Source: Mobula hypostoma | Taxonomy: Eukaryota | DNA length: 64,000 bases | Assembly (NCBI RefSeq): GCF_963921235.1 | Contig: NC_086097.1 | Location: forward strand, 105,216,001-105,280,000 | Direction of reading: 5' to 3' | Part shown: positions 2,895 through 49,065 of the stretch, one piece after another | Numbering within the stretch: position 1 is the first letter of the stretch | Layout of the letters: every line of letters begins with the position of its first letter | Notes under the pieces: model-generated | Database searches by the model: none | The model's input: the letters and a program-made list of their open reading frames with translations, nothing else | What the model was told of the DNA's origin: nothing | Program-made: the position numbers and the translations under genes

Positions 2895-3156
2895 ATTTTT
2901 TGTTTGCAAATGTAAGTGGTAATTAGGTGAGAATGCACTTGATACAAAGAACCTTAGAAGTGACGTTTCCCCTGCTACCTATTTGTTAACCAGAAAGAAT
3001 TCAGAAAGCAGAATTTGATGTCACTTTTAATCAATACAATGTAAAGCATACTTGCATTTAAATTTGAGGAGGAAATATTGAGAGAACGCAATGAGGAGAG
3101 GTGATGGCGGAGGCTTGCAAGGGCAGTGCTGTGTGCCTGAAGTAATCCTATGTACT

Positions 3157-6100
3157 AGGTGTGAGGAGGTTAGTTCACAACAGAGGGATGGGAACCAGTG
3201 CAGAGAGACAGAGGGGTGTAAAGTGAGCGTAGAAGCAAAAAGTACAAAGGGGAAAAGTAAAAGTGGCAGGCCGACAAATCCAGGGCAAGCATTAAAAAGG
3301 GCTAAGAGAGTTGTAAAAGAGTGCCTGAAGGCTTTATGTGTCAATGCAAGGAGCATTCGTAATAAGGTGGATGAATTGAAAGTGCAGATTGTTATTAATG
3401 ATTATGATATAGTTGGGATCACAGAGACATGGCTCCAGGGTGACCAGGGATGGGAGCTCAACGTTCAGGGATATTCAATATTCAGGAGGGATAGACACGA
3501 AGGAAGGGGAGGTGGGGTGGCGTTGCTGGTTAAAAAAGAGATTAACGCAATAGAAAGGAAGGACATAAGCCGGGAAGATGTGGAATCGATATGGGTAGAG
3601 CTGCGTAACACTAAGGGGCAGAAGACGCTGGTGGGAGTTGTGTACAGGCCACCTAACAGTAGTAGTGAGGTCGGAGATGGTATTAAACAGGAAATTAGAA
3701 ATGTGTGCAATAAAGGAACAGCAGTTATAATGGGTGACTTCAATCTACATGTAGACTGGGTGAACCAAATTGGTAAAGGTGCTGAGGAAGAGGATTTCTT
3801 GGAATGTATGCGGGATGGTTTTTTGAACCAACATGTCGAGGAACCGACTAGAGAGCAGGCTATTCTGGACTGGGTTTTGAGCAATGAGGAAGGGTTAATT
3901 AGCGATCTTGTCGTGAGAGGCCCCTTGGGTAAGAGTGACCATAATATGGTGGAATTCTTCATTAACATGGAGAGTGACGTAGTTAATTCAGAAACAAAGG
4001 TTCTGAACTTAAAGAGGGGTAACTTTGAAGGTATGAGACATGAATTAGCTAAGATAGACTGGCAAATGACACTTCAAGGATTGACGGTGGATATGCAATG
4101 GCAGGCATTTAAAGGTTGCATGGATGAACTACAACAATTGTTCATCCCAGTTTGGCAAAAGAATAAATCAAGGAAGGTAGTGCACCCGTGGCTGACAAGA
4201 GAAATTAGGGATAGCATCAATTCCAAAGAAGTAGCATACAAATTAGCCAGAGAAAGTGGCTCACCTGAGGACTGGGAGAAATTCAGAGTTCAGCAGAGGA
4301 GGACAAAGGGCTTAATTAGGAAGGGGAAAAAAGATTATGAGAGAAAACTGGCAGAGAACATAAAAACGGACTGTAAAAGCTTTTATAGATATGTAAAAAG
4401 GAAAAGACTGATAAAGACAAATGTAGGTCCCCTTCAAACAGAAACAGGTGAATTGATTATGGGGAGCAAGGACATGGCAGACCAATTGAATAATTACTTT
4501 GGTTCTGTCTTCACTAAGGAGGACATAAATAATCTTCCAGAAATAGTAAGGGACAGAGGGTCCAGTGAGATGGAGGAACTGAGCGAAATACATGTTAGTA
4601 GGGAAGTGGTGTTAGGTAAATTGAAGGGATTGAAGGCAGATAAATCCCCAGGGCCAGATGGTCTGCATCCCAGAGTGCTTAAGGAAGTGGCCCAAGAAAT
4701 AGTGGATGCATTAGTGATAATTTTTCAAAACTCGTTAGATTCTGGACTAGTTCCTGAGGATTGGAGGGTGGCTAATGTAACCCCACTTTTTAAAAAAGGA
4801 GGGAGAGAGAAACCGGGGAATTATAGGCCGGTTAGCCTAACGTCGGTGGTGGGGAAACTGCTGGAGTCAGTTATCAAGGATGTGATAACAGCACATTTGG
4901 AAAGCGGTGAAATGATCGGACAAAGTCAGCATGGATTTGTGAAAGGAAAATCATGTCTGACGAATCTCATAGAATTTTTTGAGGATGTAACTAGTAGAGT
5001 GGATAGGGGAGAACCAGTGGATGTGGTATATTTGGATTTTCAAAAGGCTTTTGACAAGGTCCCACATAGGAGATTAGTGTGCAAACTTAAAGCACACGGT
5101 ATTGGGGGTAAGGTATTGGTGTGGGTGGAGAATTGGTTAGCAGACAGGAAGCAAAGAGTGGGAATAAACGGGACCTTTTCAGAATGGCAGGCGGTGACTA
5201 GTGGGGTACCGCAAGGCTCAGTGCTGGGACCCCAGTTGTTTACAATATATATTAATGACTTGGATGAGGGAATTAAATGCAGCATCTCCAAGTTTGCGGA
5301 TGACACGAAGCTGGGTGGCAGTGTTAGCAGTGAGGAGGATGCTAAGAGGATGCAGGGTGACTTGGATAGGTTGGGTGAGTGGGCAAACTCATGGCAGATG
5401 CAATTTAATGTGGATAAATGTGAAGTTATCCACTTTGGTGGCAAAAATAGGAAAACAGATTATTATCTGAATGGTGGCCGATTAGGAAAAGGGGAGGTGC
5501 AACGAGACCTGGGTGTCATTATACACCAGTCATTGAAAGTGGGCATGCAGGTACAGCAGGCGGTGAAAAAGGCGAACGGTATGCTGGCATTTATAGCGAG
5601 AGGATTCGAGTACAGGAGCAGGGAGGTACTACTGCAGTTGTACAAGGCCTTGGTGAGACCACACCTGGAGTATTGTGTGCAGTTTTGGTCCCCTAATCTG
5701 AGGAAAGACATCTTTGCCATAGAGGGAGTACAAAGAAGGTTCACCAGATTGATTCCTGGGATGGCAGGTCTTTCATATGAAGAAAGACTGGATGAACTGG
5801 GCTTGTACTCGTTGGAATTTAGAAGATTGAGGGGGGATCTGATTGAAACGTATAAGATCCTAAAGGGATTGGACAGGCTAGATGCAGGAAGATTGTTCCC
5901 GATGTTGGGGAGGTCTAGAACGAGGGGTCACAGTTTGAGGATAGAGGGGAAGCCTTTTAGGACCGAGGTTAGGAAAAACTTCTTCACACAGAGAGTGGTG
6001 AATCTGTGGAATTCTCTGCCACAGCAAACTGTTGAGGCCAGTTCATTAGCTATGTTTAAAAGGAAGTTAGATATGGCCCTTGTGGCTACAGGGGTCAGGG

Positions 6101-6220
6101 GGTATGGAGGGAAGGCTGGGTTCTGAGTTGGATGATCAGCCATGATCATAATAAATGGCGGTGCAGGCTCGAAGGGCCGAATGGCCTACTCCTGCACCTA
6201 TTTTCTATGTTTCTATGTTT
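3157..6220 (+). mobile_element. Young CR1 LINE with uninterrupted ORF2 frame (APE endonuclease + RT); no ORF1
   Basis: NARSI, ITETWL, YRPP, GDFN, SDH, PQGSVLGP and FADD all intact to stop at 6126. (TTTCTATG)n tail. 9-bp TSD CTATGTACT at 3148-3156 and 6221-6229. Confidence 0.95.
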
Positions 6221-8032: not shown

Positions 8033-8715
8033 TACTAAATACCTTGATTTATAAAGACCAATGTGTCAAAAGCTCTCTTCATGACTATCTACTTGTGATT
8101 CCACTTTCAAGGAATCATAGACCTTCATTCCCAGAACCCTCCAAGATAACCCCACAAAGGTAAAAAAGATCCAAGTTCTGAGTTGAAATGGCAGTGGAAG
8201 CTTTGTCAGTGATCAGAAGTTCCACTATGTTAATGGAGTCAGAAACTGACAAATCCCTTCTGCCCTACATCATTTTCCACCCCAACCACCTCCCCACACA
8301 CACAAACTCTTCCATATTCTTATTTATGTGGAGTAAGTTTGTTAATGCAACCACACAACACTCATATGGTGAGTTGATAGCTAGCCAAAGATCATCTCAC
8401 TGCAGACAAACAGTGCGTAGCAAGCTTCACCCTCTACACATCCATGTATTCTGAGTCACAAAACCAAAACAAGGTCCACAGGAATTGCTACAGCGTCAAC
8501 TGTGACTTACTGCACCATACTTGTAAGTCTGAAGACTTGAGTTCAAATCCATTCTGGAGGGTAAACACAAAGCCCTCAGTCAACATTGCCGTGAGGGCGG
8601 CACTGAGAGGTAAGACATGCTGTTGGACTGAAATTTTAACCGAACACCAATTCTGTCAGATGCATAGAAAAATTTCTACAAGCGAACAAGAGGAACAAAT
8701 TATTTCCTTACTGAC

Positions 8716-10875
8716 CTTGGTAAACCCTTGCCAAGCTCCTGTTTCTTTTTAGCGACTTGCTGTATAACTTGATCCCAATTGACATGATGCCGAGATACAT
8801 TCAGCAGCTGACGTACAGTTGGTTTCAGACCAGATTCCTTCTCGGATTCACTTTTCTTCTGACTTCCTATGTTCCGAATTCGGCGGGCGATATTGAGGTT
8901 TGGTTCAGGGACATGAGTACCAGGTCGGGACTTAGCGTTGATGTGGCGGGTTAGGTCTCTCTGTACAGAGGTGGGAAGTCCAAGCTTGTTGAGTTCAGAC
9001 AGGAGACTGTTGGAACCCTGGGTCCCTCCACTCTGTAGCTCAATATCAGAGGAACAATTATCAAATGTTTCAGGAGGCATGGAACCTTGGACCTCATTTG
9101 CATTTTTTGCTTCAGTCACTGCAAAGGAGAAAGTGAACGATGGCTGATCTCTTGTTCTTGAAGCCAAGGCCTTTGAATCACCTTTTGTGATGCAGACTTC
9201 AAAATCAGCATCATGCTGGGTACCTAATATAGCTGTTTGATCTTTTATTGTTTGTGCACAAGACTGCCTCTGATCTGAATGCATGCTGGCAGAATCCATA
9301 ATTGTATCTGAGTGAGATTCTTCTATTTTTTGTACACAAGTCTGGCCTGAACTTACAGCTGTAACTGGGTCCAACTCTTCTGAAATGCCAATAGGTTCTT
9401 GGCTCAGTTTCCTGGAGTCACCTGGTGCTTGCTGCACCATGTCTCCATCTGTGTTCTGCAATATACTGTTACTGTTTCTACCCTCCCCAGGTTCTCCACT
9501 ACTCTCTGGATGACTGTCTTGTCCACATTCAGACTGACTCTGCCTCAGGGCTTCTCTGGCCAGTCTCAGCATCTCATTCAAACTATTGTCCAGTGGCGAT
9601 TTGTCACCACAGCCTGGTGCAGCCAGTGAGGGCCGTACAGTTGTCTCTGCGGTAGCTTCTGTTGAAAGGGGAGCTGTTGATGTGCTTGGTGCACTGTTCA
9701 GCCCTTGTGTGCTCTTACTAAGTAGTGAACATTGTGTTCCCAAATTGGGGGACCTTGGCCACTTCTCACTTTCTATCTTAAATGAGGGTTCGTCTTTCTT
9801 TGGGTTTGAATCTGAAGCAGAGGATGCACGTTCAGGAGGAGGACTGGGTAAAAATTTGGCATGAAGCATGGCAGGAAGCTGGTTCCCATCTTCGTTTGCT
9901 GCTTTGATTTCATCCTCTGTTGAGTAACCATGTTGTATTACAGAGCTTGCACCACTGTTTGATCCTTCAGTCACTTTCCCAGAGTGCCGACCACCACTTC
10001 GGTGCCGAGTCTCAGTGTCTTTCACTCGTGCCGACCTGGAACTACTCCCAGATTCATTCACATTCTTGCTTCTAATACCAGGATCTGTGGCCAGATCTTT
10101 AGACCTCTGAGGACGATATGGAGCCCAGCGATGCCTCTTATCTCTCGGGGGACTTAAACTTTTCCCCCCCTTCTCATCACTTTTATTCTGGGCTTTTAAC
10201 ACAAGGTTAAAACTCAACATCCCTTCACTTGGCACATCATCACTGGTGAAATCCATGTGACATTCCTGAAAGGCATAATCGTTCTTGCTGTACCTGTCTG
10301 ACGTTTTTCTCCCTGGCCTCCTCCAGTTTTGTGCTTTCTCCCACGCACGCCGATCTCTCACACTTCTGCTATCCATTTGATTCAACTTCTGCATTTTCCC
10401 TTTATTCCATTTCCGATCCAGCTCCTCCACAGAATTACCGCTGTTACCAGGCTGATGTCGGGCATTCGACCTGCTGCTCATGTAGTGAGCTGCACTGTCT
10501 GCAACAGTGCTGGCACTAGTGTTCCAGTTTGATGGGCCCCCTTGGACCTTGCGATGATGACTAGGTGCCCCCCCTGGTCCACTGGAATGCCAGCTATGAT
10601 TGGAATACCAATTGGGAGCCGCTTCGCTGTCATCGGGCTGCCAACTGTGATGTCCCCACGAGCCCGGTAAGCGTCGGTTTGAAGAACCCCCTGAATTTGT
10701 CTTCCAGTGGTATTTGCTCAATCTGCAACTGGCATATTCCCTTGGGACCCAGTTCCGCTCCCGCTCTCCTGCACTTTCATGGTGCCATTGGCTCATAGGC
10801 TGGTCTTCCCTCATCCTCCAATATCGTCTGTCATCACCATCTGCTCGGTTTCCTGGCTTGGGCACATCATTCTTT
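8716..10875 (-). CDS. ZNF106: ZNF106 large coding exon 4 (2160 nt), low-complexity W/S/G-rich region
   Basis: Within ORF 8700..10898. Ends ...QRDLTRHI...PEPNLNIARRIRNI...VNWDQVIQQVAKKKQELGKGLPR as in ZNF106. Acceptor ttttgtgtag, donor AG|gtcag. Confidence 0.95.
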
Positions 10876-11149
10876 CTACACAAAACAAAATAACACACAT
10901 ACAGTTATTAAATTTACAGCACAGTAAGTAGCTATTGGTCCAACATGGAAAGAACATCAAACTACTGCAGATACTGGAAACCTGAAACAAAAACCAATGC
11001 TGGAATACTCGAGGTTACCTGTGGGAACTGTCAATGCTTTACGTGCAGGACCCGATGAAGAATTCCAAACCTAAAACATTAGCCGTTTCTCTTTCTACAG
11101 ATGCCACCTGACCTGATTGAGAGCTTGCAATTTTTTTGTTATTTTAGCC

Positions 11150-15572: not shown

Positions 15573-18500
15573 CTTTGTTGTGAGGTGCAGGCAAATATGT
15601 TTTGAAGGGTTTGCCATTATTGAAAGTTGTCGCAAAGTGACTGAAAATAAGCCAAGTTCTTGTTTGCTTTATCAATGTGTATTCTCTTCAAATAGTCAAG
15701 GAGCCAAGATGGTTTCATTGCTTCAACTGAAAAAACTTTTTTCACACAACAGACACCTGGTTGCTGGTTGGTTGGTTGTTTGGTGCTGATACAAATCCAT
15801 TTTTCTGAAACTACACACGATACCGTCTACACTTCTTTTTTGTTTGGTCTGCTTCTGCTATATTCATTATGGATTAATGATCACTATCAATCGCCTATTG
15901 TTCATGTTCAACTTCAAATACTGCAATCAATAAAGGGGAAAACTATGATACCATCATTGCTTAGGTAAAACCAGACTCTCTGACTGAAGGTACATAAAAT
16001 GAGGCAGTGATATCTTGGTTGGGCCATGGGGCTAGCAAAATGCAGTCAACACCATTTGAAAGGGCAGATACTTAACGTTACCCCATTGAACACCACACCC
16101 TAATTCACAGGATTTCATCACTGTGTGATTAGATTATGGGAACTATACTAGCTAATGCTGTACTACACTACTGAAGGGCAAAAACGCGTGGTCTGGATCC
16201 TGAGATAACACGATTTCTGCAGTGCAGTTTCTCAAGATATGCCAAATACAGAAGCGTAACTTTGCTTTTTAACAACTATATTGTGCTTTGAGCACAGTCC
16301 GAGAGAATGGTGGGTTAAACAAGATATGAAGTGATTATGCGATCACTACACTGTAATCAGTTATGAGGCAATACTTGCAATAAGTAATTCATTTCTTAAA
16401 TTAATCCCTCAACTACCCCCTTTGCTACTGAGCACCCTCCCCCTACTCTCCCAGGACTGGGGGCAATATCTTCCATTTTGAGAACCATTGTTGTAGTGCA
16501 TCAAGGGATCTTTTGCATTCACTGAAAGGTACAGTTGGCGGGGACGACTGACCAGGGGTAAGCCAAGGTGGCAGGGCCTCCAGCACTGAGTCTGACCCTG
16601 TGGTACACAGAAGAGGAGAGCTGTCATCACTGGGGACTCTATAGTCAGGGGAGCAGACAGGAGATTTTGTGGACGTGAGAAGGACACCCGCATGGTGTGT
16701 TGCCTCCTGGGTGCCAGGGTCCGGGATGTCTCTGACCGGGTGCACGACAACCTGGTATGAGAGGGAAAGCAACCAGAAGTCGTGATACATGTTGTCACCA
16801 ACGACAAAGGCAAGAAGAGGGATGAGGTCCTGAAGTGTGAGTTTTGGGAACTAGGCAGAAGGCTGAAGAACAGGACCTCAAGGGTGGCGTTCTCAGGATT
16901 GCTGCCAGTGCTACACGATAGTGATGGTAAGAATCGGAGGAGATGGTAGTTGAATGTGTGGCTGAGGAGTTGGCGCAGGGGGCAAGGTTTTAGATTTTTA
17001 GATCATTGGGATCTCTTCTGGGGAAGGTGGGACCTGTACAGATTGGATGGGTTGCACCTGCACTCCAGGGGGAGCAATATCCTTGCAGGTAGGTTTGCTA
17101 GCATGGTTCGGGAGGGTTTAAACTAATTTGCAAGGGGGATGGGACCCAGAGCGATAGAGCAGTGAAGGAAGTACATGGAGTAAAGCCAGATCTTAACATA
17201 TAGAGAGGCTTTGAGGAAAGAGAAGCAGAATAAAAGGTGTAAAGGTAGTAAGGTAGAAGGGCTAAAGTGCGTGTACGTCAATGCAAAAAACACCAGGAAC
17301 AAAGGTGATGAACTGAGAGCTTGGATACATACATGGAATTATGATGTAGTGGCCATTACAGAGACTTGGCTGGCACCAGGGCAGGAATGGATTCTCAATA
17401 TTCCTGGATTTCAGTGCTTTAAAAGGGATAGAGAGGGGAAAAAGGGGAGGAGGGGTGGCATTACTGGGTAGGGATACTATTACAGCTACAGAAAGGGTGG
17501 GTAATGTAGCAGGATTGTCTCTTGAGTCAGTATGGGTGGAAGTCAGGAACAGGAAGGAAGCAGTTACTCTATTGAGAGTATTCTATAGGCCCCCTGCTAG
17601 CAACAGAGATACCAAGGAGCAGATAGGGAGGCAGATTTTGGAAAGGTGCAAAAATAACAGGGTTATTATCATGGGTGACTTTAACTTCCTTAATATTGAT
17701 CGGCACCTGATTAGTTCCAACTGTTCAGACGGGGCAGTTTGTTAAGTGTGTTCAGGACGGATTCCTGTCACAGTATGTGGACAGGCCAACTAGGGGGAAT
17801 GCCATACTAGATCCAGCATTAGATAACGAACCGGGTCAGGTTACAGATCTCTCAGTGGGTGAGCATCTGGGGGACAGTGACCACCACTCCCTGGCCTTTA
17901 GCATTATCATGGAAAAGGACAGGAAAATTTTTGATTGGGGAAGGGCAAATTTTGAGGTTATAGGCTAGAACTTGCAGGTGTAAATTGGGATGATGTTTCT
18001 GCAGGGAAACGTACTATGGACATGTGGTCGATGTTTAGGGATCTCTTGCAGGTTGCTAGGGATAAATTTGTCCCGGTGAGGAAGATAAAGAATGGTAGGG
18101 TGAAGGAACCATGGGTGACAAGTGAGGTGGAAAATCTAGTCAGGTGGAAGAAGGCAGCATACATGAGGTTTAGGAAGCAAGGATCAGATGGGTCTATTGA
18201 GGAATATAAGGTAGCAAGAAAGGAGCTTAAGAAGGGGCTGAGAAGAGCAAGAAGGGGGCATGAGAAGGCCTTGGCAAGTAGGGTAAAGGAAAACCCCAAG
18301 GCATTTTTCAGTTATGTGAAGAACAAAAGGATGACAGGAGTGAAGGTAGGACCGATTAGAGATAAAGGTGGGAAGATGTGCCTGGAGGCTGTGCAAGTGA
18401 GCAAGGTCCTCAATGAATACTTCTCTTCGGTATTCACCAATGAGAGAGAACTTGATGACGGTGAGGACAATATGAGTGAGGTTGATGTTCTGGAGCATGT

Positions 18501-19809
18501 TGATATTAAGGGAGAGGAGGTGTTGGAGTTATTAAAATACATTAGGACAGATAAGTCCCCGGGGTCTGACGGAATATTCCCCAGGCTGCTCCATGAGGCG
18601 AGGAAAGAGATGATCTTTATGTCCTCTTTGTCCACGGGAATGGTACCGGAGGATTGGAGCGAGGCGAATGTTGTCTCCTTGTTCAAAAAAGGTAGTAGGG
18701 ATAGGCCAGTGAGCCTGACATCTGTGGTGGAAAAGCTGTTGGAAAAGAGTCTTAGAAATGTGAGCTATGGGCATTTAGAGATACATGGTCTGATCAGGGA
18801 CAGTCAGCATGGCTTTGTGAAGGACAGATCGTGTCTAACAAGCCTGATAGAGTTCTTTGAGGTGGTGACCAGGCATATAGATGAGGGTAGTGTAGTGAAT
18901 GTGATCTGCATGGATTTTAGTAAGGCATTTGACAAGGTTCCACACGGTAGGCTTATTCAGGAAGTTAGAAGGCATGGGATCCAGGGAAGTTTGGCCAGGT
19001 GGATTCAGAATTGGCTTGCCTGCAGAAGGCAGAGGGTGGTGGTGGAGGGAGTACATTCAGATTGGAGGATTGTGACTAGTAGTGTCCCACAGGGATCTGT
19101 TCTGGGACCTCTACTTTTCGTGATTTTTATTAACGACCTGGATGTGGGGGTAGAAGGGTGGGTTGGCAAGTTTGCAGACGACACAAAGGTTGGTGGTGTT
19201 ATGGATAGTGTAGAGGATTGTCGAAGATTGCAGAGAGACATTGATAGGATGCAGAAGTGGGCCGAGAAGTAGCAGGTGGGGTTCAACCCGGAGAAGTGTG
19301 AGGTGGTACACTTTGGAAGGACAAACTCCAAGGCAGAGTACAAAGTAAATGGCAGGATACCTGGAAGTGTGGAGGAGCATAGGGATCTGGGGGTACATGT
19401 CCACGGATCCCTGAAAGTTGCCTCACAGGTAGATAGGGTAGTTAAGAAAGCTTATGGGGTGTTAGCTTTCATAAGTCGAGGGATAGAGTTTAAGAGTCAC
19501 AAGGTAATGATGCAGCTCTATAAAACTCTGGTTAGGCCGCACTTGGAGTACTGTGTCGAGCTCTGGTTGCCTCACTATAGGAAGGATGTGGAAGCATTGG
19601 AAAGGGTACAGTGGAGATTTACCGGGTTGCTGCCTGGTTTGGAGAGTATGCATTATGATCAGAAATTAAGGGAGCTGGGGCTTTACTCTCTGGAGAGAAA
19701 GATGATGAGAGGAGACTTGATAGAGGTATACAAGATATGAAAAGGAATAGATAGAGTCAACAGCCAGCGCCTTTTCCCAAGGGCAACACTGCTCAGTACA
19801 AGGGGACAT

Positions 19810-20593: not shown

Positions 20594-22927
20594 ATAGAAA
20601 CATAGAAAATTGGTGCAGGAGTAGGCCATTCGGCCCTTCGAGACTGCACCGCCATTTAGTATGATCATGGCTGATCATCCAACTCAGAACCCCGCCCCAG
20701 CCTTCCCTCCATACCACCGATCCCTTTAGCCACAAGGGCCATACCTAACTCCCTCTTAAATATAGCCAATGAACTGACCTCAACTGTTTCCTGTGGCAGA
20801 GAATTCCACAGATTCACCACTCTCTGTGTGAAGAAGTTTTTCCTCATCTCGGTCCTAAAAGGCTTCCCCTTTATCCTCAATCTGTGACCCCTCGTTCTGG
20901 ACTTCCCCAACATCGGGAACAATCTTCCTGCATCTAGCCTATCCAATCCCTTTAGAATTTTATACGTTTCAATAAGATCCCCCCTCAATCTTCTAAATTC
21001 CAATGAGTATAAGCCTAGTTGATCCAGTCTTTCATCAAATGGAAGTCCTGCAATCTCAGGAATCAATCTGGTGAACCTTCCTTGTACTCCCTCTATGGCA
21101 AGGATGTCTTTCCTCAGATTAGGGGACCAAAACTGCACACAATACTGCAGGTGTGGTGTCACCAAGGCCTTGTACAACTGCAGTAGTACCTCCCTGCTCC
21201 TGTACTCGAATCCTCTCGCTATAAATGCCAGCATACCATTCGCCTTTTTCACCGCCTGCTGTACCTGCATGCCCACTTTCAATGACTGGTGTATAATGAC
21301 ACCCAGGTCTCGTTGCACCTTCCCTTTTCCTAATCGGCCACCATTCAGATAATAATCTGGTTTCCTGTTTTTGCCACCAAAGTGGATAACCTCACATTTA
21401 TCCACATTAAATTGCATCTCCCATGAATTTGCGCACTCACTTAACCTATCCAAGTCACCCTGCATTCTCTTAGCATCCTCCTCACAGCTAACACTGCCGC
21501 CCAGCTTCGTGTCATCCGCAAACTTGGAGGCGCTGCATTTAATTCCATCGTCTAAGTCATTAATATATGTTGTAAACAACCGGGGTCCCAGCACTGAGCC
21601 TTGCGGTACCCCACTAGTCACTGCCTGCCATTCTGAAAAGGTCCTGTTTATTCCCACTCTTTGCTTCCTGTCTGCTAACCAATTTTCTATGCACATCAAT
21701 ACCATACCCCCAATACCGGGTGTTTTAAGTTTGCACACTAATCTTCTGTGTGGGACCTTGTCAAAAGCCTTTTGAAAATCCAAATATACCACATCTACTG
21801 GTTCTCCCCTATCCACTCTACTAGTTACATCCTCAAAAAATTCTATGAGATTCGTCAGACATGATTTTCCTTTCACAAATCCATGCTGACTTTGTCCGAT
21901 GATTTCACCGCTTTCCAAATGTGCTGTTATCACATCCTTGATAACTGACTCTAGCAGTTTCCCCACCACCGACGTTAGGCTAACCGGTCTATAATTCCCC
22001 AGTTTCTCTCTCCCTCCTTTTTTAAAAAGTGGGGTTACATTAGCCACCCTCCAATCCTCAGGAATTAGTCCAGAATCTAAAGAGTTTTGAAAAATTATCA
22101 CTAATGCATCCACTATTTCTTGGGCTACTTCCTTAAGCACTCTGGGATGCAGACCATCTGGCCCTGGGGATTTATCTGCCTTCAATCCCTTCAATTTACC
22201 TAACACCACTTCCCTACTAACATGTATTTCCCTCAGTCCCTCCATCTCACTAGACCCTCTGTCCCTTACTATTTCTGGAAGATTATTTATGTCCTCCTTA
22301 GTGAAGACAGAACCAAAGTAATTATTCAATTGGTCTGCCATGTCCTTGCTCCCCATAATCAATTCACCTGTTTCTGTCTGTAGGGGACCCATATTTGTCT
22401 TAAACAATCTTTTTCTTTTCACATATCTATAAAAACTTTGACAGTCAGTTTTTATGTTCCCTGCCAGTTTTCTCTCATAATCTTTTTTCCCCTTCCTAAT
22501 TAAGCCCTTTGTCCTCCTCTGCTGGACTCTGAATTTCTCCCAGTCCTCAGGTGAGCCACTTTTTCTGGCTAATTTGTATGCTTCTTCTTTGGAATTGATA
22601 CTATCCCTAATTTCTTTTGTCAGCCACGGGTGCACTACCTTCCTTGATTTATTCTTTTGCCAAACTGGGATGAACAATTGTTGTACATCATCCATGCGAT
22701 CTTTAAATGCTTGCCATTGCATATCCACCGTCAACCCTTTAAGTGTCATTTGCCAGTCTATCTTAGCTAATTCACATCTCATACCTTCAAAGTTACCCCT
22801 CTTTAAGTTCAGAACCTTTGTTTCTGAATTAACTATGTCACTCTCCATCTTAATGAAGAATTCCACCATATTATGGTCACTCTTACCCAAGGGGCCTCTC
22901 TCAACAAGATTGCTAATTAACCCTTCC
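20594..22927 (-). mobile_element. Young 5'-truncated CR1 with open RT frame; same subfamily as 3157-6220
   Basis: ORF 20665..23025 is nearly identical in protein to 3091..6126 from EGLIS onward; (TTTCTATG)n tail at 20594-20609. Confidence 0.93.
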
Positions 22928-23199
22928 AAACTTGTCCTTTGGAAAGTCAAGGCAAGACTTTCACAGTGAACAGTCGGAACCTGCAGAGAGTTATTGAATA
23001 GAGAGGCTCTAGGGTTCACATACATGGTTCTCTGAAAGTGGCGTCACAGGTAGAGAAGGGTGGTGAAGTCAGCTTTTGGCATGTTGACCATCATCAGTCC
23101 AGGCATTGAATATTAAAAAGTCGGGAGGTCACAGTGCAGCCTTACAAGACTCTGCTGAGGCCGTACTTGTTGTATGTGTTCAGTTTTGGAAACCCACTA

Positions 23200-24522
23200 C
23201 AGACTTCCCCCACCATCCGAAGGTAGAGTGTTCCCGTGAAACGGTTCGTAAGCCAGAATGTCGTAAAGTGAAGAAGCAATTACCATTTATTGATATGGAA
23301 AAAATTAGTGAGCGTTCGCAGACCCAAAAAATAACCTACCAAATCATGCCAAATAACACATAAAACCTAAAGTAACAGTAACATATAGTAAAAGCAGGAA
23401 TGATATGATAAATACACAGCCTATAAAAGTAGAAATTCTTTTCTGCAATCATTGCACTGTCCACCGTAGTGAAAATCTCACGCAAGCGCTCTCGGCAGAA
23501 ACACTCGGCGCAAGCGCTCCCAGCAGAAACACACTCTCTCTAGTAACCTTTAAACTATGAAGCTACCAAATCATACCAAATAACACATAAAAATACACAG
23601 TCTATATAATGCAGAAATAATGTATGTACAGTGTAGTAACACTTACGGGAATCTAGAAGACAGTGAGCACGCTGATGATGGTGTGTTAGGCTGAGTCATC
23701 AGAGGTTGGGGTGGTGGGACACTGGGGTATCATCTCATCGTCGACTGTTTCCATCAGGGCAGGCAGGTCATCTTCTATCTCTGCCTGCCTCAATGTCAAA
23801 GGTTGAGGTTCGTCATCTGCTGTGGCTGATGTGGAAGGCTTGAAAAACGACAGTATGCTTGACTGCTTAGCCTCGCGCATTTTTTTATCATACAATTCTT
23901 TGTAAGCAAACCATCCTGCAAATATGCCCTAAACCTACGTAACCTTTCAGAATTAAAGTTGTACTTTTCTGCAATCATTGTTGTCAATGCAGCGAAAATC
24001 TCACGTAGTTGCTTCACCTTCAGTTCCTGGACGACTTCACTTTCCGTCTGTTTGCTACTGCATTCGGTTTCGATTGTTATCCTTTCCTCTTCCAATTGTA
24101 TCAGCTCTTCATCTATCAGTTCTTGGTCATTGGATGCCAAAACCTCTTCAACATCATCTTGGTCAACTTCCACAAGCCAAACTCACTTTGTCCTTACTTC
24201 GTTCACCGCGATCGAAATGATTAATTATGTCTAGTTTTACGCTAAGTGTTACGAGCTCTTTTAGGCTTTTCTGATATCTTAGAACTCATCTTGCTAACGG
24301 ATGCTCAAAATAAATCGACATAAAGCACAGATGCTCACAGGCATGTGTTAAAGCAATGCCGGCTAGAATGCAGTTCTGGGGGAATAGCTTGGCTGCTCCT
24401 TTTGACTGCTTTTTTTCGTAACAGTGAAAACACCTTCTGTTAGCGAAAACAGGTAACTAATGTAGGTCTTTTGTAACAGCGAGGTGTCGTAAAGCAAACG
24501 TTCGAAAAGCAGGGGATACCTG
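23200..24522 (-). mobile_element. TcMar-Tigger (pogo) internally deleted transposon in an old CR1 remnant
   Basis: TA-CAG...GGGGATACCTG ends; Tigger C-terminal remnant EVDQDDVEEVLAS..ELIDEELIQLEEE..KQSSILSFFKP. Confidence 0.8.
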
Positions 24523-25325
24523 CATATGAAATATGCTATTGAACTGGAAAGAATACAGAAAAAATTAACACGGATGTTGTCAAGATTTGAGAGACTGAGT
24601 TATACAGGGAAGTTGGATAGGCTGGGACTTTACTCTTTGGAGTGAAAGACTGAGAGGTGATCTTAGCGGGGTGTATTAAAATAATGAGGGGCATAGACAC
24701 AGTGAATGTACTCTTGTCTTTTTCCCCTAGGTTGGCAAATCAAGATCTAGAACACATAGGGGGGTGGAAGAGATTAACTTAAGGGGCAACTTTTTTTAAG
24801 AACACAGTGTGATGTGGTATGTAGGTGGAATGAGCTGCCAGAAGTGGTTGAAGCAAGCATGACAACAACTAAATAACTCGTCAACCAGTCCTACATACAC
24901 AAAAACCCATCGAGATACACACAGTGACATGCTCCCCAAACAGTGGACCCTCCGCCCGTCCACCGGTGCTACATAGGCCAACCTATCTGAGAGCTTCCTA
25001 ATCCTCCGAGACCTCTGTATCCCCCTCACCTAAACCCTAAAAGCTCGGACACTACTAGGGATACCTCGGGTCTGCTTGCCAGCTCCTCTCTCACTCATGC
25101 CACCACTACAACTCGGAGCCCCCTGTCCCATGTCTGGGGCCCCGTTTCTTTTCCTTCCTGGTCCTGCTGTAACCCAGACTGCCCACAGCTAGCCCTCCCC
25201 ACTACACCTAACTCAGTGGGAGAAGGGCCAAAGGTCTCTTCCTCAATCATGGGGAAGTTAGCGAAAGGCAGCATGTACCATATGTGCAGCACATCATCCT
25301 TCGAATCCGTATTCTTCCTCATTCC

Positions 25326-26075
25326 CTCGATTGGTAGATGCTGTTTAAGTTTCTCCAAACTGAAACATTTAGCCGGGGCTACCCCTTCAGCCTCCTGCAG
25401 TCGAGACGTCAGCTTCTTTGGGGACTCCTTCAACTCTCGCCACAGCCTCAGCAGTTCTGACTCAGGGTTCCTGGCCATCTCAATCTGGGACACAGTTACC
25501 CCACCAGCTTCTTCCACCCTGACCTGACAAGCAGCAGTTAAAGAACGTTCAGCCTCCGGTTGTTTCTTCCTGAGGGCGTCTTCCAGGTCAACTTTCAGTT
25601 TTTCCACTTCATTTAAACTGTCAATAGTCATCTTCAGGTTCCTTTCAAGCGTCCGCCTCCCTTTTCCGAGATCAGTCCTCCAGTTCTTCACCTCCTCAGG
25701 AGTGCAGTCAAACTCCCCTCCCTGGGCTCTTGGTTTTCTGTTTGCCTTAGTCAGACCACTTCCTTGATCTTCCCTAACTTGTAAGTCTTCCAATCTTTTC
25801 TGGATCTACGTCTTGAGTTTCTGCTGATCCCTTCGAAGGTGAGTCATTGTTTCTTCTCACTGGATTAATTCATCAGTACACAACCGCAGTGTCGGCTCAA
25901 AACTCCGTTGCTCCTTCTCCACGTTGACGAGCGTGAATTCCAAGTCTGCAATGGTCGTCCCACAAGTGCGGCACTCAGTCTCCGGTCAGCATTTCTGAGC
26001 ACTCAGTTCAGTGGTGCAAATCCCCTCTCTCCCGTGTCTCATTCAGACTGATGACCTGGGTTTCCATCCCCAGGT
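25326..26075 (-). pseudogene. Intronless myosin II heavy-chain rod fragment (MYH16-like) inside Gypsy pol
   Basis: [117 protein letters not shown] align to recalled sarcomeric myosin S2/LMM sequence. Confidence 0.8.
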
Positions 26076-27590
26076 CCACCACCGCCTATTCCAACACCAG
26101 GAAGTTCAACTGGTACGTCGGGTCATTTTTCTCACATTGCACCAAACTCCTCCGGCCAAAAACTCCTCCACATGTGACACTTCGCTTCTGTTGCCTGGGC
26201 TCAGCCACTCACCTCGCCTCATAGTCCCCCCAGTCGAATCCAAGCTCTAGGCAGTCATCCACATACACCAAAACTCCACACACCTTCACTTCCCCCATGG
26301 TCTTCCTCATGCCCCGCGGGAAGGTTGCAGGGGCTCCGGATATGCCCTTTGGCATCTTTTCGGATTGGAAGAATCCTAGGGAACTAATAACGGCCGTCTT
26401 CTCTTCATCAGCTGCACTCCTCGGGATCTGGCAACATCCACTCCTCAGATCCAGCACATTAAACTACGTTGCATAATCTGCACACACGCTGCCTACGTCT
26501 TCCACGGCGCCAGGGTCCACTGAGGTGTCTTCAGCGGTCAACTCCCCTCCCTCGTGGTAGTTCGGAGCGCCTGCTAAGAGGGTTTCACCCTCAGCTACTT
26601 CCCCCAGGCCGTACCACAGCTGGGTCTCGTTTAAATTCCATACTGGCTCAAGGCTGCTACACACGTCCTCAGAAGCAACTCGACACGCTGGGTGCCCCCA
26701 TGAACTCCAGGGTCATTAACCAATCATCGTCTTCTGGATAATTACTGGCACTGGTACCCAAAATCTCCGGTGCCCTTGCGGTTGTCAAGGGTAAATGCTT
26801 CAGACATCAGTTGTAAAACGAACTGTACAGCAACTTGACCTGCGCCCCGGGGTCGAGGATGGCTTTAGCATCGTTTCCCTCTATCCATAACGACACCCTG
26901 GGGCGTGGTCCCTCTAAGCCTTCAGGAATAGGGTCTTCTCCTTTCGGAAGTTCATTGGTACATTGCTGGGAACGTGCTCCTCCAGAGACCCCAAGCTGTT
27001 CCCCCACTGGGCCTCCACTAAGTTTCCCGACACCTCTCTGATCAGCTGAACAACTGGAGGAGGGGCTGATCCCCTGAAATGATCCCCCTGGCACTGCAAG
27101 CAATTTAGTTGCCCTCCCAAACACACAGAAAACTTTTCCCCCTCTTTCAAATAACTGACAGCTGTCACTACAGTGTAGTTGAACCTGACAGCTCTAACAC
27201 TGTCACCAGCCCACCTACTTAAACTTTCAACCAATCCCTGTCGCTCTCCCTCAACCAAGCACCGCCACTCATCTAACAACTGAGAGATCTGCTCCGCCCA
27301 CGTCTCGCACGCCTCCACCCCTCTTGGGGTGGACACTATCCCAAACGCCAGGTGGAGCCTGCCAGAGCTAGAACATTTATTCGCAGACACTACCTCCAAA
27401 TCAGACAACTCTTTCCTCTCTCTCCCAACAGCATGGACAGCCCCGAGTTCCACCCCCAACTCATCAACGCTAGTCTGAACTCGAACAAAGACCCCACTCA
27501 CCACGCATACAGCAATAACCAGCAAATAACCCACAGAGACACACATTACTGATTGAAACAGGGCAACCACACAGCATACCACTAGATCCA

Positions 27591-27610
27591 ATCCCGGACA
27601 AAAGCCCCCA
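27591..27610 (-). promoter_or_regulatory. Primer-binding site, tRNA-Pro-like
   Basis: TGGGGGCTTTTGTCCGGGAT versus canonical TGGGGGCTCGTCCGGGAT, 2 nt after the LTR. Confidence 0.7.
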
Positions 27611-27612
27611 AA

Positions 27613-28321
27613 TGTAGCCCCCCTGGCCACCCTCAGGGTCGCTCAGCTTGCTGTCGTCTAGAGAAACAGCCCTCGGCCCCGCCAAACTGGGTAATTAGTT
27701 TGTGTGGATGCTGTGTGATGTACCCCACCCCACCCAAATAACAGACAATACACTAGATACAATTAAATGATTTACAGTTTATAGATATTTCTGGAACTAT
27801 GTAATTAATAGAGAATAAAATATAAACGGAAAATAAAAGGCGCCAAACTTATCAAAGTTCAATCTATTCGTGCACAAACAGTTGGAGCTCAGGGCCCTCC
27901 TTCTTCACCCTGCAATCCCCTCAGACCACCTCAACCTACCGCCTGGGACCAACAATGGTGGTCGACCAGACGCTCCACGAGTCCATCTCCGTCTCCTCTC
28001 CTCGCTGAACACCCTGGACCTTGGACTCCTGCTCGGGGTCGGATCCTGTTAGCAGACTCACAGCACCTGGTCCATCCTCTGTCTCTCTCTCCCGCCTTCT
28101 CCCCAAAAACCTGCGCATCACAATATCTTACAGACACACAGAAAGCATAACACTATCCCAATTGGTTCATAACACCTTACCAGTAACATGATGCAAACAA
28201 CCGCTAGCGGGAGGACTTTCTCAGCAGTTAACATAACAAAGAAGCCCTTTCAATTATAACATAACAAAGAAGCCATTTTAATTAGACTACGCAGTGACAT
28301 AAAAAAAAGAAACCCCTTACA
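27613..28321 (-). repeat. 5' LTR of the Gypsy element (~709 bp)
   Basis: Minus strand begins TGTAAGGGG and ends GGGGCTACA, directly followed by the PBS. Confidence 0.8.
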
Positions 28322-29021
28322 CTACAATCAATTGAAACACCTTGACTGTACACAGTAATAGTCATAATCATACTTTATTGATCCCAGGGGAAATTGGTTT
28401 TCGTTACAGTTGCACCATAAATAATAAATAGTAATAGAACCATAAATAGTTATAGTAATATGTAAATTATGCCAGTAAATTATGAAATAAATCCAGGACC
28501 AGCCTATCAGCTCAGGGTGTCTGACCCTCCAAGGGAGGAGTTGTAAAGTTTGATGGCCACAGGCAGGAATGACTTCCTATGACGCTCTGTGCTACATCTC
28601 GGAGGAATGAGCCTCTGGCTGAATGTACTCCTGTGCCCACCCAGCACATTATGTAGTGGATGGGAGACATTGACCAAGATGGCATGCAACTTAGACAGCA
28701 TCGGGTAAGAAACATAATGTGACTGGGACCATGGTAATCTCCATTTAACTAATTATGAGACTTCTAAAACCAATTGGCTGCACCAGTGATGATTTGATGT
28801 GTCATATTAAACGGGGTGAATACTTATGCGATCAATTATCGTTTGTTTTATATTTGTAATTTAGATCACTTTGTAGAGATCTGTTTTCACTCTGACACAA
28901 CAGAATCTTTTTCTGGTGATCAGTGCCTAGAAAAGCCAAATTAAATCCACTTATTCCATGTTATAAAACAATAAAACATGAAAAACTTCCAAGAGGGGGT
29001 GAATGCTTTTTATAGGCACTG
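28322..29021 (-). mobile_element. Tc1-like transposon left end, interrupted by a Rex/Babar fragment
   Basis: Minus strand starts TA-CAGTGCCTATAAAAAGCATTCACCCC, with an internal repeat of the transposase-binding motif (ggggtgaatactt). Confidence 0.65.
28358..28702 (-). mobile_element. Rex/Babar-type LINE 3' end
   Basis: LHAILVNVSHPLH..RKSFLPVAIKLYN; very similar to 56080-56420. Confidence 0.75.
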
Positions 29022-30239
29022 TATTTCATGTATTTAGGAAAGGTCCATTTCCGTCCTATATGACTGACTCTGGGGCCTTATTATATTACAGGCCATAACG
29101 AAAAGTTCAGAGAATGTAGACCCAAGTTCTATAATACCAAAATTAGAATTTATGAACATAAGGAACACAAGAAGTCAGAGCAGGAAAAGATGCTCTGCAG
29201 TTCAATATGATCAGGGTAGCTTTTAGCATGACTTTCCCACACTACTAAGTCCTCGGAGTTGCTTAATATGTACAAAGCTGCGGACAGCTGTTTTACCCTC
29301 TGTCAGTAACTGACCTCCTCAGTCCTCTTTGCATTGAGAATTCTAAAAATTCACAATCCTCTGGGTGAGGTTTTTCACTGTTGTCCTGAATGGAGCCCTT
29401 CCATCTAAGATCTTTTTTCTACACACTCAAACCAATGGGAACATCAGCATAGCCTCTACCCTGGTAACACCCTGAATTTAAATAATATATAATCTAGATT
29501 AAATGGAGCATGAAGCTGCCAAGTAATCACAGAACCTAATTTATAGTTATACAGCATAGAAACAGGGCCTATAGCCAACTTGTCCAGACCAAACAAGTTC
29601 TGAATGAGTTCTGAATTGTCTGAGTCCCCTCTGCCCACATTTGGCCCATGTCCCTTTTAACTTTGTCTTTCCATGCACCTGTCCAAGTACCTTTTAAATG
29701 CTGCCAATGTACCTGTCTCAACAACATCCTCTGGTGCCTCCTTCCACTAACTTACCTCTGTACAATCATCCTGCACTCTCTTATACTCTTGCTCAATCTC
29801 TCTCCATAATCCTCATGTAGTGGCAATATCCTCATTAATCTCCTCTGAAGCTTAATGGCATCTTCCCTATAGCACGGTGACCAAAACTGAACATAATATT
29901 CCAAATGTCACCTCAACAACATCAAGATCCATCTTTAAATCCTGATAATCATCTTCACTCCCCACACCACCACCTATTTGGAGTCATCTCCAAACTCACT
30001 AACCATGCCTTGTACATTGTTGACCAATATCTTTTTAAGGAAGGGAATCTGCTGCAGTAAACATCTCCAGTCTAATGCCATTTCTTTACCCTGATTTCCA
30101 TAAGTTTTCACCACTATATTAAAGCAATAAGTAAAGAGTAATGAATGTATCGGGCTGTGACCAATCAACGAGAGGATGTGTGTAAATAAAGCTCCCTTTT
30201 CTGGTTAGCTGACTGGTTCCTTCCACTACCACTCTCATC

Positions 30240-40851: not shown

Positions 40852-43225
40852 GGCATTTTCAAAGGCAGGTCATGTCTTACAAGCCTGATTGAACTTTTTG
40901 AGAACATGACTAAACATATTGATGAAGGTACTTTATTACTTTATTGTCGCCAAACAATTGATACTAGAACGTACAATCATCGCAGCGATATTTGATTCTG
41001 CGCTTCCTGCTCCCTGGAGTACAAATCGATAGTAAATATTAAAAATTTAAATTAAAAATCCTAAATAGAAAATGGAAAGTAAGGTAGTGCAAAAAAACCA
41101 AGAGGCAGGTCCGGATATTTGGAGGGTACGGCCCAGATCAGGGTCAGGATACGTTCAGCAGTTTTATCAGAGTTGGAAAGAAGCTGTTCCCAAATCTGGC
41201 CGTACAAGTCTTCAAGCTCCTGAGCCTTCTCCCGGACGGAAGAGGGACGAAAAGTGTTTTGGCTGGGTGGGTCGTGTCCCTGATTATCCTGGCAGCACTG
41301 CTCCGACGGCGTGCGGTGTAAAGTGAGTCCAAGGACAGAAGATAGGTTTGTGTGATGTGCTGGGCTGTGTTCACGATCTTCTGCAGCTTCTTCTGGTCAG
41401 GACAACTTCCGTACCAGGTTGTGATGCACCCTAGAAGAATGCTTTCTACGGTGCATCTAAAAAAATTAGTGAGGCTATTAGGGGACAGGCCAAATTTCTT
41501 TAGCTTTCTCAGGAAGTAAAGGCGCTGGTGGGCCTTCTTGGCAGTGGACTCTGCTTGGTTGGACCAAGTCAGGTCATTTGTGATACTGACCCCGAGGAAC
41601 TTAAAGCTTTTGACCTGTTCCACTTGCGCACCACCGATGTAAATGGGGTTGTGCAGTCCACTACTCCTTCTGACGTCAACAACCAATTCCTTCGTCTTGC
41701 TGACGTTGAGGGATAGGTTATTGTCTTCGCACCATGCCATCAGGTTCTTAATTTCCTCTCTGTACTCAAACTCATCATTACCTGAGATACTGTCTATAAT
41801 TGTGGTGTCATCAGCAAACTTATATATTGAGTTTGATGGAAACTTGGTTACACAATCATGGGTGTACAGTGTGTACAGCAGGGGGCTGAGTACACAGCCT
41901 TGTGGGGCACCGGTGCTCAGAGTGATTGTAGAGGAGAGCTTGTCCCCTATTTTTACAGCCTGGGTCCATTCTGTGAGGAAGTTGAAGATCCAGCTGCAGA
42001 TCTGAGTCCAGGTTCCGGAGCTTAGGAATCAAGTTTATTTGGAATGATTGTATTAAAGGCAGAGCTGTAGTCAATGAAAAGGACCCTTACATATGCACCT
42101 TTATTCTCCAGGTGTTCTAAGGAGGTAGAGCAGTAGATGTAGTGTACATGGATTTCAGCAAGGCATTTGATAAGGTACCCCATGCAAGGCTTATTGAGAA
42201 AATAAGGAGGCTTGGGATCCAAAGGGACATTGCTTTGTGGATCCAGAACTGGCCTGCCCACAGAAGGCAAAGAGTGGTTGTAGATGGGTCATATTCTGCA
42301 TGGAGGTTGGTAACCAGTGGCGTGCTTCAGGGATCTGTTCTGGGACTCCTACTCTTCGTGATTTTTGTAAATGACCTGGATGAGGAAGTGGAGGGATGGG
42401 TTAGTAAATTTGCTGATGACATAAAGGTTGGGGGTGTTGTGAATAGTGTGGAGGGCTGTCAGAGGTTACAGCGGCACATTGATAGGATGCAAAACTGGGC
42501 TGAGAAGTGGCAGATGGAGTTCAACCCAGGTAAGTGTGAGGTGGCTCATTTTGGTAGGTCAAATATGATGGCAGAATATAGCATTAATAGTAAGGCTCTT
42601 GGCAGTGTGGAGGATCAGAGGGATCTTGGGTTCTGAGTCCATAAGACACTCAAAGCTGCTACTCAGGTCAACTCAGACCCCACTTGGAGTACTGTGCTCA
42701 ATTCTGGTCGCTTCACTACAGGAAGGACGTGGAAACCATAGAAAAGGTGCAGAGGAGATTTACAAGGATGCTGCCTGGATTGGGGAGCATGCCTTATGAA
42801 AACAGGTTGAGTGTACTCAGCCTTTTCTCCTTGGAGCGACGGAGGATGAAAGGTGACCTGATAGAGGTATATAAGATGATGAGAGGCATTGATCGTGTGG
42901 ATAGTCAGAGGCTTTTTCCCAGGGCTGAAATGGCTAGCATGAGAAGGCATAGTTTTAAGGTGCTTGGAAGAAGGTATAGAGGAGATATCAGGGGTAAGTT
43001 GTTGTTTTTTTTTACACAGAGAGTGGTGAGTATGTGGAATGGGCTGCCGGTAGCGGTGGTGGAGGCGGAAACAATAGGGTCTTTTAAGAGACTCCTGGAT
43101 AGGTACATGGAGCTTAGAAAAGTAGAGGGCTATGGATAAGCCTAGGTAGTTCTAGGGTAAGGACATGTTCGACACAGCCTTTGTGGGCTGGAGGGCCTGT
43201 ATTGTGCTGTAGGCTTTCTATGTTT
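40852..43225 (+). mobile_element. CR1 3' half, interrupted at ~40930-42121
   Basis: KGRSCLTSLIE..KHIDEG| resumes as |[26 protein letters not shown] tail. Confidence 0.85.
40930..42121 (-). mobile_element. Rex/Babar LINE 3' part
   Basis: [49 protein letters not shown]; (AATAAAGT)n tail. Confidence 0.85.
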
Positions 43226-48399: not shown

Positions 48400-49065
48400 T
48401 GTTGGGGATTTGGAGTCTGATGTTTGTTGGTGTTTTTCTGTGTGGGTGAACATGTTGTGTTTTGTGAGAGGAAGGTTGGGGGTTTGGAGTCTGATGTTGA
48501 TGTTTGTTGGTGTTTTTCTGTGTTGGTGAGTCTGTTTTGTTTTGTGTGAGCGAGGGGTTGGAGATTTGGGGTCTGATGTTTGTGGGTGTTTTTCTGTATG
48601 GGTGAAATCTATTATGTTTTGTGAAAGAAGGGTTGGGGGTTTGGGGTCTGATGAGGGTGTTTGTTAGTGTTTTTCTGTGTGGATGAATCTGTTCCGTTTT
48701 GTGAGAGAGGGGTTGGGGTTTGGGGTTTGATGTTGGTGTTTGATGGTGTTTATATGTGCTGGTGAACCTGTTATGTTTTGTGAGAGAGGGAATGGGGTTT
48801 GGGGTCTAATGAGGGTGTTTGTTAGTGTTTTTCTGTGTTGTTGTGTCTGTTATGCTTTCTGAGAGTACGGTTGGGGGTTTGGGGTCTGATGTTTGCTGGT
48901 GTTTGACGGTGTTTTTCTGTGTGGGTGAGTCTGGTATGTTTTGTGAGAGAGGGGTTGGGGGTTTGGGGTATGATGTTGGTGTTTGCCGGTGTTTTTCTGT
49001 GTGGATGAATCTGTTATGTTTTGTGAGAGAGGGGTTGGGGGTTTTGGGTCTGATGTTGGTGTTCA
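48400..49065. repeat. ~78-83 bp GT-rich minisatellite, about 8 copies
   Basis: Unit approx. gtttttctgtgtgggtgaatctgttatgttttgtgagagaggggttgggggtttggggtctgatgttggtgtttgttggt. Confidence 0.85.

Follow-up and report, generated by a model that had tools for sequence, protein, structure and literature searches.

A non-autonomous Ty3/Gypsy retrotransposon family with intron-free myosin rod sequence in the genome of Mobula hypostoma

The Gypsy element and its myosin segment

The DNA analysed here, hereafter the window, is a stretch of 64,000 nucleotides (nt) from Mobula hypostoma (NCBI RefSeq assembly GCF_963921235.1, contig NC_086097.1, positions 105,216,001 to 105,280,000). On its minus strand, positions 24869-28321 are a 3'-truncated, dead copy of a non-autonomous Ty3/Gypsy long terminal repeat (LTR) retrotransposon and, inside this copy, a piece of intron-free myosin rod sequence lies between remnants of pol (Table 1). 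A first-pass annotation, made from the letters alone, had read the locus as a Gypsy element that captured a spliced MYH16-like myosin rod sequence within pol.

The minus strand of positions 24000-30000 was translated in three frames and compared with a full Gypsy gag-pol protein of Hypanus sabinus (P0125), which was found with the long open frame of a sister copy and whose Pfam domains follow the order PNMA, zf-CCHC, RVT_1, RNase H, Integrase_H2C2 and rve. Segments of P0125 are collinear along the window copy, through gag, zinc knuckle and protease (PR), reverse transcriptase (RT) and RNase H, the last of them ending at about 26074. This ordered mapping, together with the LTR, the primer-binding site (PBS) and the gag and RT domains, confirms the assignment to a Gypsy-type element. 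The PBS starts 2 nt past the LTR end and reads TGGGGGCTCGTCCGGGATT, which we take to be a match to tRNA-Pro, in 5 of 26 aligned copies. In the window translation, the protease active-site stretch is DPGA and not DTGS, and the Pfam match to RVT_1 falls in the frame 26463-26209 (-). The pol remnants of the family keep the order PR-RT-RNase H; integrase is found in an autonomous-like relative, L065, and not in the family.

The window copy stops at 24869, before the polypurine tract (PPT) and the 3' LTR. In most copies, the first 709 nt recur 41 nt past the end of the internal region, as the 3' LTR, and in 28 of the 29 other copies fetched the purine tract GGTGGGGGGAGAG is followed by that LTR, with copy L002 diverging just before it. 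Because divergence sets in 2 bases past 24871 and the 64-kb window holds no second LTR of the family, its single LTR match being the 5' LTR, the window copy is 3'-truncated. The element flanks, 24500-24868 and 28322-28760, read as CR1-like tails of long interspersed nuclear elements (LINEs), for example in a plus-strand frame at 24493-24645, which ends in ..LGLYSLE, and in ..SFLPVAIKLYNSS at 28507-28752 of the minus strand; the 3' truncation adjoins a CR1-like fragment of this kind.

Table 1. Features of the element copy in the window
Feature	Position	Strand	Evidence and remarks
5' LTR	27613..28321	-	709 nt, TGTAAGGGG...GGGCTACA, TG..CA ends (TGTAAGG..CTACA); the same 709 nt form the 3' LTR elsewhere
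PBS, tRNA-Pro type, mutated in the window copy	27593..27610	-	alignment of the PBS in 26 copies
gag remnant with PNMA-like capsid region and broken zinc knuckle; open frame of 242 codons	26914..27642	-	Pfam PNMA, E 4.6e-5; P0125 136-217
Zinc-knuckle/protease remnant	26702..27076	-	tblastn, P0125 437-563, 49% identity
Reverse transcriptase remnant with YVDD	26212..26562	-	P0125 874-988, 50% identity; Pfam RVT_1, E 3e-6
RNase H remnant (..NFLVLE*AVVDLG)	26074..26163	-	P0125 1166-1195; ends at the myosin joint 26080-26075
Intron-free myosin-rod cDNA (complementary DNA), 3 stops, 1 frameshift	25323..26080	-	~760 nt, from a host MYH16-clade gene
Stretch with spliced exons E3+E4	25422..25516	-	88% identity, blastn against the spliced coding sequence; exon ends GT-AG
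pol tail, downstream of integrase, ..RSRRIRKLSDRL	24869..25322	-	77% identical to L065 positions 1585-2044

The myosin segment had been placed at 26075-25326, which is right to a few bases, since our own bounds are about 26080 and 25323. The three in-frame stops and the single early frameshift reported for it were confirmed in the translations, and the predicted return to a Gypsy pol C-terminus is also found: homology to the pol tail resumes in frame at about 25322, directly past the myosin end. A reading of this post-myosin stretch as the end of the integrase core was rejected, as pol proteins gave no match to it at E<1 and L065 shows it to be a pol tail that follows integrase.

At the protein level, the frame 25805-25095 (-) matches solved chains of Myosin-7 over residues 1004-1088 (E 2.5e-5), with weaker patches at ~1145-1184 and 1372-1422, and 26015-25326, with X at the stops, aligns to residues 937-1185 and 1380-1428 of a frog myosin (pairwise E 2e-22, 27% identity). 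The window piece thereby corresponds to frog residues ~915-1088, pieces of 1100-1185 and ~1390-1430. The internal jump to residue ~1390 lies at about 25424|25423 and is common to all element types, which pass from exon E4 of the source gene described below (after ..GAGTTGGAGGAG, ~residue 1185) to ~1390, between two ELEE(A) motifs. Further myosin deletions differ by subfamily, at similar GAG-rich spots.

Pfam returned only coiled-coil noise for the window myosin frames. For the myosin part of the less deleted copy L042, Myosin_tail_1 reached E 4.8e-6 and 25.2 bits, below the gathering score (cut-off 38.1), and for exon E4 of the source gene E 7.8e-9 and 34.4 bits (cut-off 38.1). Window positions 25516-25422, in turn, span the exon-exon joint E3|E4 (at 25485|25484) with 88% nucleotide identity to the spliced host exons, and this excludes a chance likeness to myosin. 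Descent from a myosin is shown by nucleotide identity and not by Pfam, and the fragments are short. A search of a phage collection gave no match and is of no relevance here.

Source gene and capture joints

The host genome searched comprises 3.48 Gb, and in the searches described here small samples of the candidates were scored. The frog myosin segment gave three kinds of match: exon pieces at 77-82% identity in the host fast-myosin cluster (contig C68, 15.3-15.9 Mb), single continuous matches at 30-34% in element copies, and a few intron-free intermediates at ~40%, which come from less common relatives of this element whose myosin piece is longer (L041, L042, L044, L054, L056, L057 and L058). 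A 200-nt stretch that is missing from the abundant subfamily returned 17 candidates, 13 of them other element copies and three of them exons, at C68 14615529, 14651245 and 14663721; a fourth exon match, at 14666489, was found in a separate search. These exons identify the source as a myosin gene at ~14.6 Mb of C68, with four consecutive exons at 14615500-590, 14651248-304, 14663723-809 and from 14666491 onwards, all with canonical borders (..AG|exon|GT..).

The introns between them, of 35,657, 12,418 and 2,681 nt, are exactly missing in L044 and L056, where the exons are contiguous, and three exon-exon joints of the source gene are thus observed directly in element copies. That the insert derives from a spliced host myosin mRNA, as had been suggested from the lack of introns, is borne out by these joints. 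Identity to the spliced coding sequence (CDS) is 96.6% in L042 (116 nt) and 94.8-95.7% in L041 and L054 and, over ~300 nt, 89% in L056 and 87% in L044. Copies of the window type retain less of it: CDS 33-70 and 204-~300 are both kept, at 79-92%, in 26 of 29 other such copies, as they are in the window copy, and L006, L010 and L029 match over CDS 204-~300 only. For other MYH paralogues of the host, identity to the element is 77-81% and extends over about 60 nt only.

The spliced exons form an open myosin-rod frame of 160 residues. A tree was built from 28 rows and 160 columns, four gapped rows having been excluded. In it, the source gene groups with another host gene (C36) and with six teleost proteins carrying the automatic NCBI name 'myosin-16-like', in a clade (support 100/99) that stands apart from MYH7B, MYH7, MYH3, MYH13 and the fast myosins, in agreement with the MYH16-like origin proposed at the outset. 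The search for a named elasmobranch orthologue of this gene gave none; among the named matches to exon E4, the best are 61-63% identical. There is no further exon in the 5.7 kb upstream of E3. For the first ~600 nt of the insert, DNA queries of 988 and 216 nt returned so many element copies that no host exon was scored. The intron between E3 and E4 itself holds, at C68:14666090-14666209 (L061/L060), a fragment of ~100 nt in reverse orientation, which matches the non-myosin part of older copies (92% to L041, 80% to L056).

The capture joints were read from the less deleted relatives. With the RNase H region of L044 plus 80 nt of myosin as the query, 40 of 1,541 candidates were scored; in 33 of these the match has 82-86% identity and ends at about one and the same base, L044 position 1394. 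From this shared end point, the 5' joint of the original capture lies at P0125 ~1272, in the RNase H-integrase linker. L065, read downstream of the joint, carries an integrase with 76% identity to P0125 1278-1565, and all element types, that of the window included, resume homology at L065 ~1587 and continue through the pol tail to the LTR. In a single capture event, ~974 nt of myosin cDNA thus took the place of ~1,557 nt of integrase. The frame is kept at both joints, and the pol and myosin alignments fall in a single frame in L042, L044 and L026.

L042 and L044 continue to P0125 1272-1293, and in the window the blocks of RNase H and myosin homology meet at 26080-26075, overlapping at q2242-2247. 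The window joint is a later in-frame deletion peculiar to the abundant subfamily, in which P0125 1196-1272 and the first ~20 myosin codons were removed. The earlier suggestion that RNase H and integrase had both been replaced therefore stands for integrase; the loss of RNase H belongs to this secondary deletion and not to the original capture joint.

We consider it very probable that a Gypsy element transduced a spliced mRNA of the MYH16 clade and that the chimera was then amplified as a non-autonomous element, of which the window holds one truncated member. Most likely, a spliced myosin mRNA was packaged together with Gypsy RNA, and reverse transcriptase used a part of it as template in place of ~1.56 kb of the element's own RNA. 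The founder would have had the structure LTR-PBS-gag-PR-RT-RNaseH-myosin rod cDNA (~975 nt)-pol tail-PPT-LTR, in frame and without integrase, and could have moved only with proteins supplied by autonomous relatives, of which the genome has many. Later in-frame deletions in pol and myosin, several of them at GAG-rich repeats, would have led to a derivative of 4.2 kb, and the amplification of this derivative would have given rise to the window copy, among others.

Retroviral oncogenes are acquired, by the textbook route, through read-through and splicing, and the 5' joint allows the same route to be weighed for the myosin. An element in or upstream of the myosin gene would have given a transcript spliced into the myosin exons, the 3' joint being formed by recombination in reverse transcription. 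The position of the joint could be taken in this sense, as the insert starts near an exon start: it begins at the motif LADAEERC, 4 codons past the exon start of two host paralogues. A GAG-rich stretch at the joint resembles the exon start of a paralogue, which is a hint only. By the conserved intron position of the paralogues, however, the joint lies ~11-13 nt inside the exon, and its element side reads GAGAG|CATTCC in the autonomous-like copy, with no GT donor. With an earlier exon start in the paralogues and no GT in the parent, the 5' joint is unlikely to have been made by splicing, and template switching, by which the reverse transcriptase would have passed from one RNA to the other, is the better reading; we give the read-through route a very small chance of being correct.

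Amplification, age and the open frame

The 3,451-nt stretch, used as a query, gave 8,322 first-look candidates; 34 were scored, and 23 places other than the window match at least 95% of its length at 87-90% identity. With the myosin part alone (759 nt) there were 836 candidates, and all 40 scored, the window's own copy included, are full length at 92-94%. Fifteen copies have both LTRs, with a pair distance (Kimura two-parameter, K2P) of 0.060-0.099 (mean 0.072), and in 11 of these 15 a perfect 4-bp target duplication is present, with different flanks, in keeping with the 4-6 bp typical of Ty3/Gypsy elements; the duplication is imperfect in three and unreadable in one. The derivative has been amplified to at least several hundred copies, and the 836 candidates, the LTR pairs and the target duplications agree with the multicopy, non-autonomous family that had been predicted. 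By the divergence of its LTRs, the family would be tens of millions of years old.

The same copies bear on the idea that LINEs made a processed myosin pseudogene, that this was inserted into a single dead Gypsy copy and that the composite then spread by DNA duplication. The machinery for the first step exists, the window being full of LINEs with long RT and endonuclease frames. The myosin end, however, has no poly(A) and passes directly into the pol tail; the piece comes from within the mRNA (~residues 900-1430 of ~1940) and replaces 1.56 kb of pol instead of being added to it; and the copies have LTR pairs and 4-bp target duplications of their own, with different flanks. The joints recur in every copy examined, and a single-copy processed pseudogene, which the first-pass annotation had named as the outcome that would overturn its reading, is thus set aside. 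We regard the LINE route as hardly credible.

Several observations weigh against transduction followed by amplification in trans, or narrow what can be said of it. No intact autonomous partner was found among the 150 places scored of 2,401 candidates, where the longest open frame is of 637 residues, and the LTR of the autonomous-like L065 is only weakly like that of the window; relatives of the RNase H region are abundant in the genome and decayed. The copy numbers are rough lower bounds, because only a small sample of the candidates was scored. The window copy has neither a second LTR nor a target duplication, and its translation gives no match to Pfam Myosin_tail_1 at E<=0.1. The source exons for the first ~600 nt and the last ~120 nt of the insert were not seen, and the two capture joints are therefore defined on the element side only. 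The label MYH16, finally, rests on automatic NCBI names and 160 residues. Mobilisation in trans, like the reason why the frame stayed open, is something that we infer.

As for that frame, gag and the second frame are offset by one base in most copies. L026 has an extra base at nt 490 of its frame, which 23 of the 27 other aligned copies are without, and shows a natural open frame of 716 codons, from gag into myosin; beyond the offset, the PR, RT, RNase H, myosin and tail remnants are all in one frame. Stops were counted over the individual copies. In the L026 frame, each stop before codon 831 is common to at most 11 of 28 copies and the stop at codon 831 is present in 27 of 28, the total per copy being 4-12 in 907 codons (shared stops past codon 831 included). 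The probability of finding no stop in the myosin part is 0.2-7% at 8-15% change in the founder lineage. The ratio of nonsynonymous to synonymous substitution rates (dN/dS) of the myosin is 0.67 between subfamilies (150 pairs) against 0.69 within the family (435 pairs), which serves as the neutral control. The long frame stayed open and the myosin residues drifted like the neutral control; of the two properties for which the first-pass annotation had proposed a test, the open pol-myosin frame is present, with no majority stop before codon 831, and dN/dS shows no constraint beyond that of the control.

The myosin piece is best read as a passenger. The alternative is that its coiled coil is more than that, the pol-myosin-tail frame having been kept open by selection, through ~10% change and ~8 in-frame deletions, by way of particle competition or RNA stability. 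In this sense one can cite the maintenance of one frame by the capture joints and by every later deletion, the lack of a majority stop in ~667 codons of the founder frame, the low no-stop probability given above for the myosin part, and the prevalence of the short derivative (at least 836 candidates, as compared with 17, including 13 other element copies, for the least-deleted stretch). These points are opposed by the dN/dS of the myosin, which equals that of the control, by the deletion of different myosin parts in different subfamilies and by the altered protease motif. The frame is open and its residues are unconserved, and we consider a functional role unlikely. Were it true, translation through the cargo or a coiled-coil fusion protein would have helped an integrase-less chimera to outcompete its parents, with escape from nonsense-mediated decay or entry into the helper's particles as possible routes.

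The family is not confined to M. hypostoma. Seven of 1.84 billion representative proteins searched match at E<=1e-30. The named matches are annotated as 'uncharacterized protein' in Mobula birostris, Hypanus sabinus and Hemitrygon akajei, and those of M. hypostoma as 'myosin-16-like' or 'myosin heavy chain, skeletal / cardiac / striated muscle-like'. Proteins of M. birostris, M. hypostoma and H. akajei show both the jump peculiar to the element and the joint of myosin with the pol tail, the Hemitrygon protein having 58% identity. The survey of related species that had been called for thus returned the same jump and joint in ray proteins, and the chimera is therefore common to the lineages of mantas and stingrays, through descent or through spread. 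Contigs from sequencing runs of four organisms cover the element and two of them bridge the joint at 26080; they have no bearing on transcription. In M. birostris, a RefSeq protein of 450 residues named 'glutathione S-transferase theta-2 isoform X1' (P0287) is 85% identical, over residues 276-450, to the myosin-tail frame of the window, and clusters at 90% with an element-derived protein; the gene model seems to have taken in an element copy, or else to be mislabelled. Element copies are annotated as myosin-like proteins in ray genomes, and counts of myosin genes are inflated as a result.

Relation to known chimeric elements and other features of the window

Oncogene-transducing retroviruses and the maize element Bs1 have a spliced host sequence fused in frame, have lost replication genes and need a helper. 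The myosin chimera is like them in that a spliced host sequence lies in frame with element proteins and a replication gene is lost. It is unlike them in that there is no sign here of a cargo selected for its own activity, and in that its 5' joint appears not to be a splice joint.

Acutely transforming retroviruses and Bs1 are also named in the work of Tan et al. (2016, Genome Res 26:1663, PMC5131818) on LTR-mediated retrocopies, or chimeric retroposed loci, of animals. The cases in that paper share with ours an intron-free piece of host mRNA inside a discontinuous LTR element, with no poly(A) and no L1 hallmarks; template switching is proposed for them, and further copying of the chimera in non-autonomous form is possible. 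The central feature of such retrocopies is found in the myosin chimera, where intron-free host sequence lies between parts of one LTR element and ~1.56 kb of pol are missing; microsimilarity between mRNA and element at the joint is given as a hallmark of the published cases. These occupy one or a few insertion sites, whereas we find hundreds of copies and a series of deletion subfamilies and, in further contrast to them, a cartilaginous fish as host, an in-frame fusion within pol and an age that would reach tens of millions of years. Non-autonomous LTR families moved in trans (MaLR/MERVL and ETn/MusD), also named there, are internally deleted elements that outnumber their autonomous relatives, and resemble the present family in this respect; unlike it, they carry no host coding sequence.

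Crocodilian endogenous retroviruses (ERVs) have captured KIT-ligand and nectin3 (Chong et al. 2014, Retrovirology 11:71, PMC4299795). They too have a host mRNA in place of an element gene (nectin3 for env), in several copies and shared between species. The ERV4 elements are retroviruses of low copy number (six for nectin3) whose host frames are whole and under purifying selection, in contrast to a Gypsy element with a rod fragment of 325 codons that drifts like its control and is present in hundreds of copies.

The mechanism and the kind of element are already published (PMC5131818, PMC4299795), and spread this far is rarely seen. New here are the locus of the source gene and its spliced joints, both joints of the original capture and integrase as the replaced part, along with the deletion ladder and a frame that is open and unconstrained. 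Our literature search found no paper on a myosin-carrying LTR element, and a search on transposable elements of Mobula found nothing relevant. The family offers a clear vertebrate case of a Ty3/Gypsy element that transduced a fragment of a spliced host gene and was amplified to hundreds of dispersed copies, in which the source gene, both capture joints (on the element side) and the deletion derivatives can still be read, and it forms a natural data set on template jumps of reverse transcriptase. Hundreds of copies of the myosin segment could also feed small-RNA cross-talk with the source gene, a process discussed for gene capture in maize (10.1101/777037).

The remainder of the window is rich in LINE sequence. 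An uninterrupted frame of 1,014 codons at 3082-6126 (+), with AP-endonuclease and RVT_1 domains, is a LINE second open reading frame that seems complete. Long LINE RT frames are also present at 1328-2221 (+), 17956-19272 (+), 20665-23043 (-) and 60089-60973 (+), and one at 41144-42028 (-) has a C-terminal part that also matches Pfam ALKBH8_N (PF09004, E 6e-11). Strong blocks of GC skew in the window track the strand of the LINEs. An open frame of 734 codons at 8700-10904 (-) matches no Pfam family at E<=1, and at 48421-49063 there is a tandem array with an 80-nt unit in 8 copies (79% matches) and a higher-order period of 322 nt.

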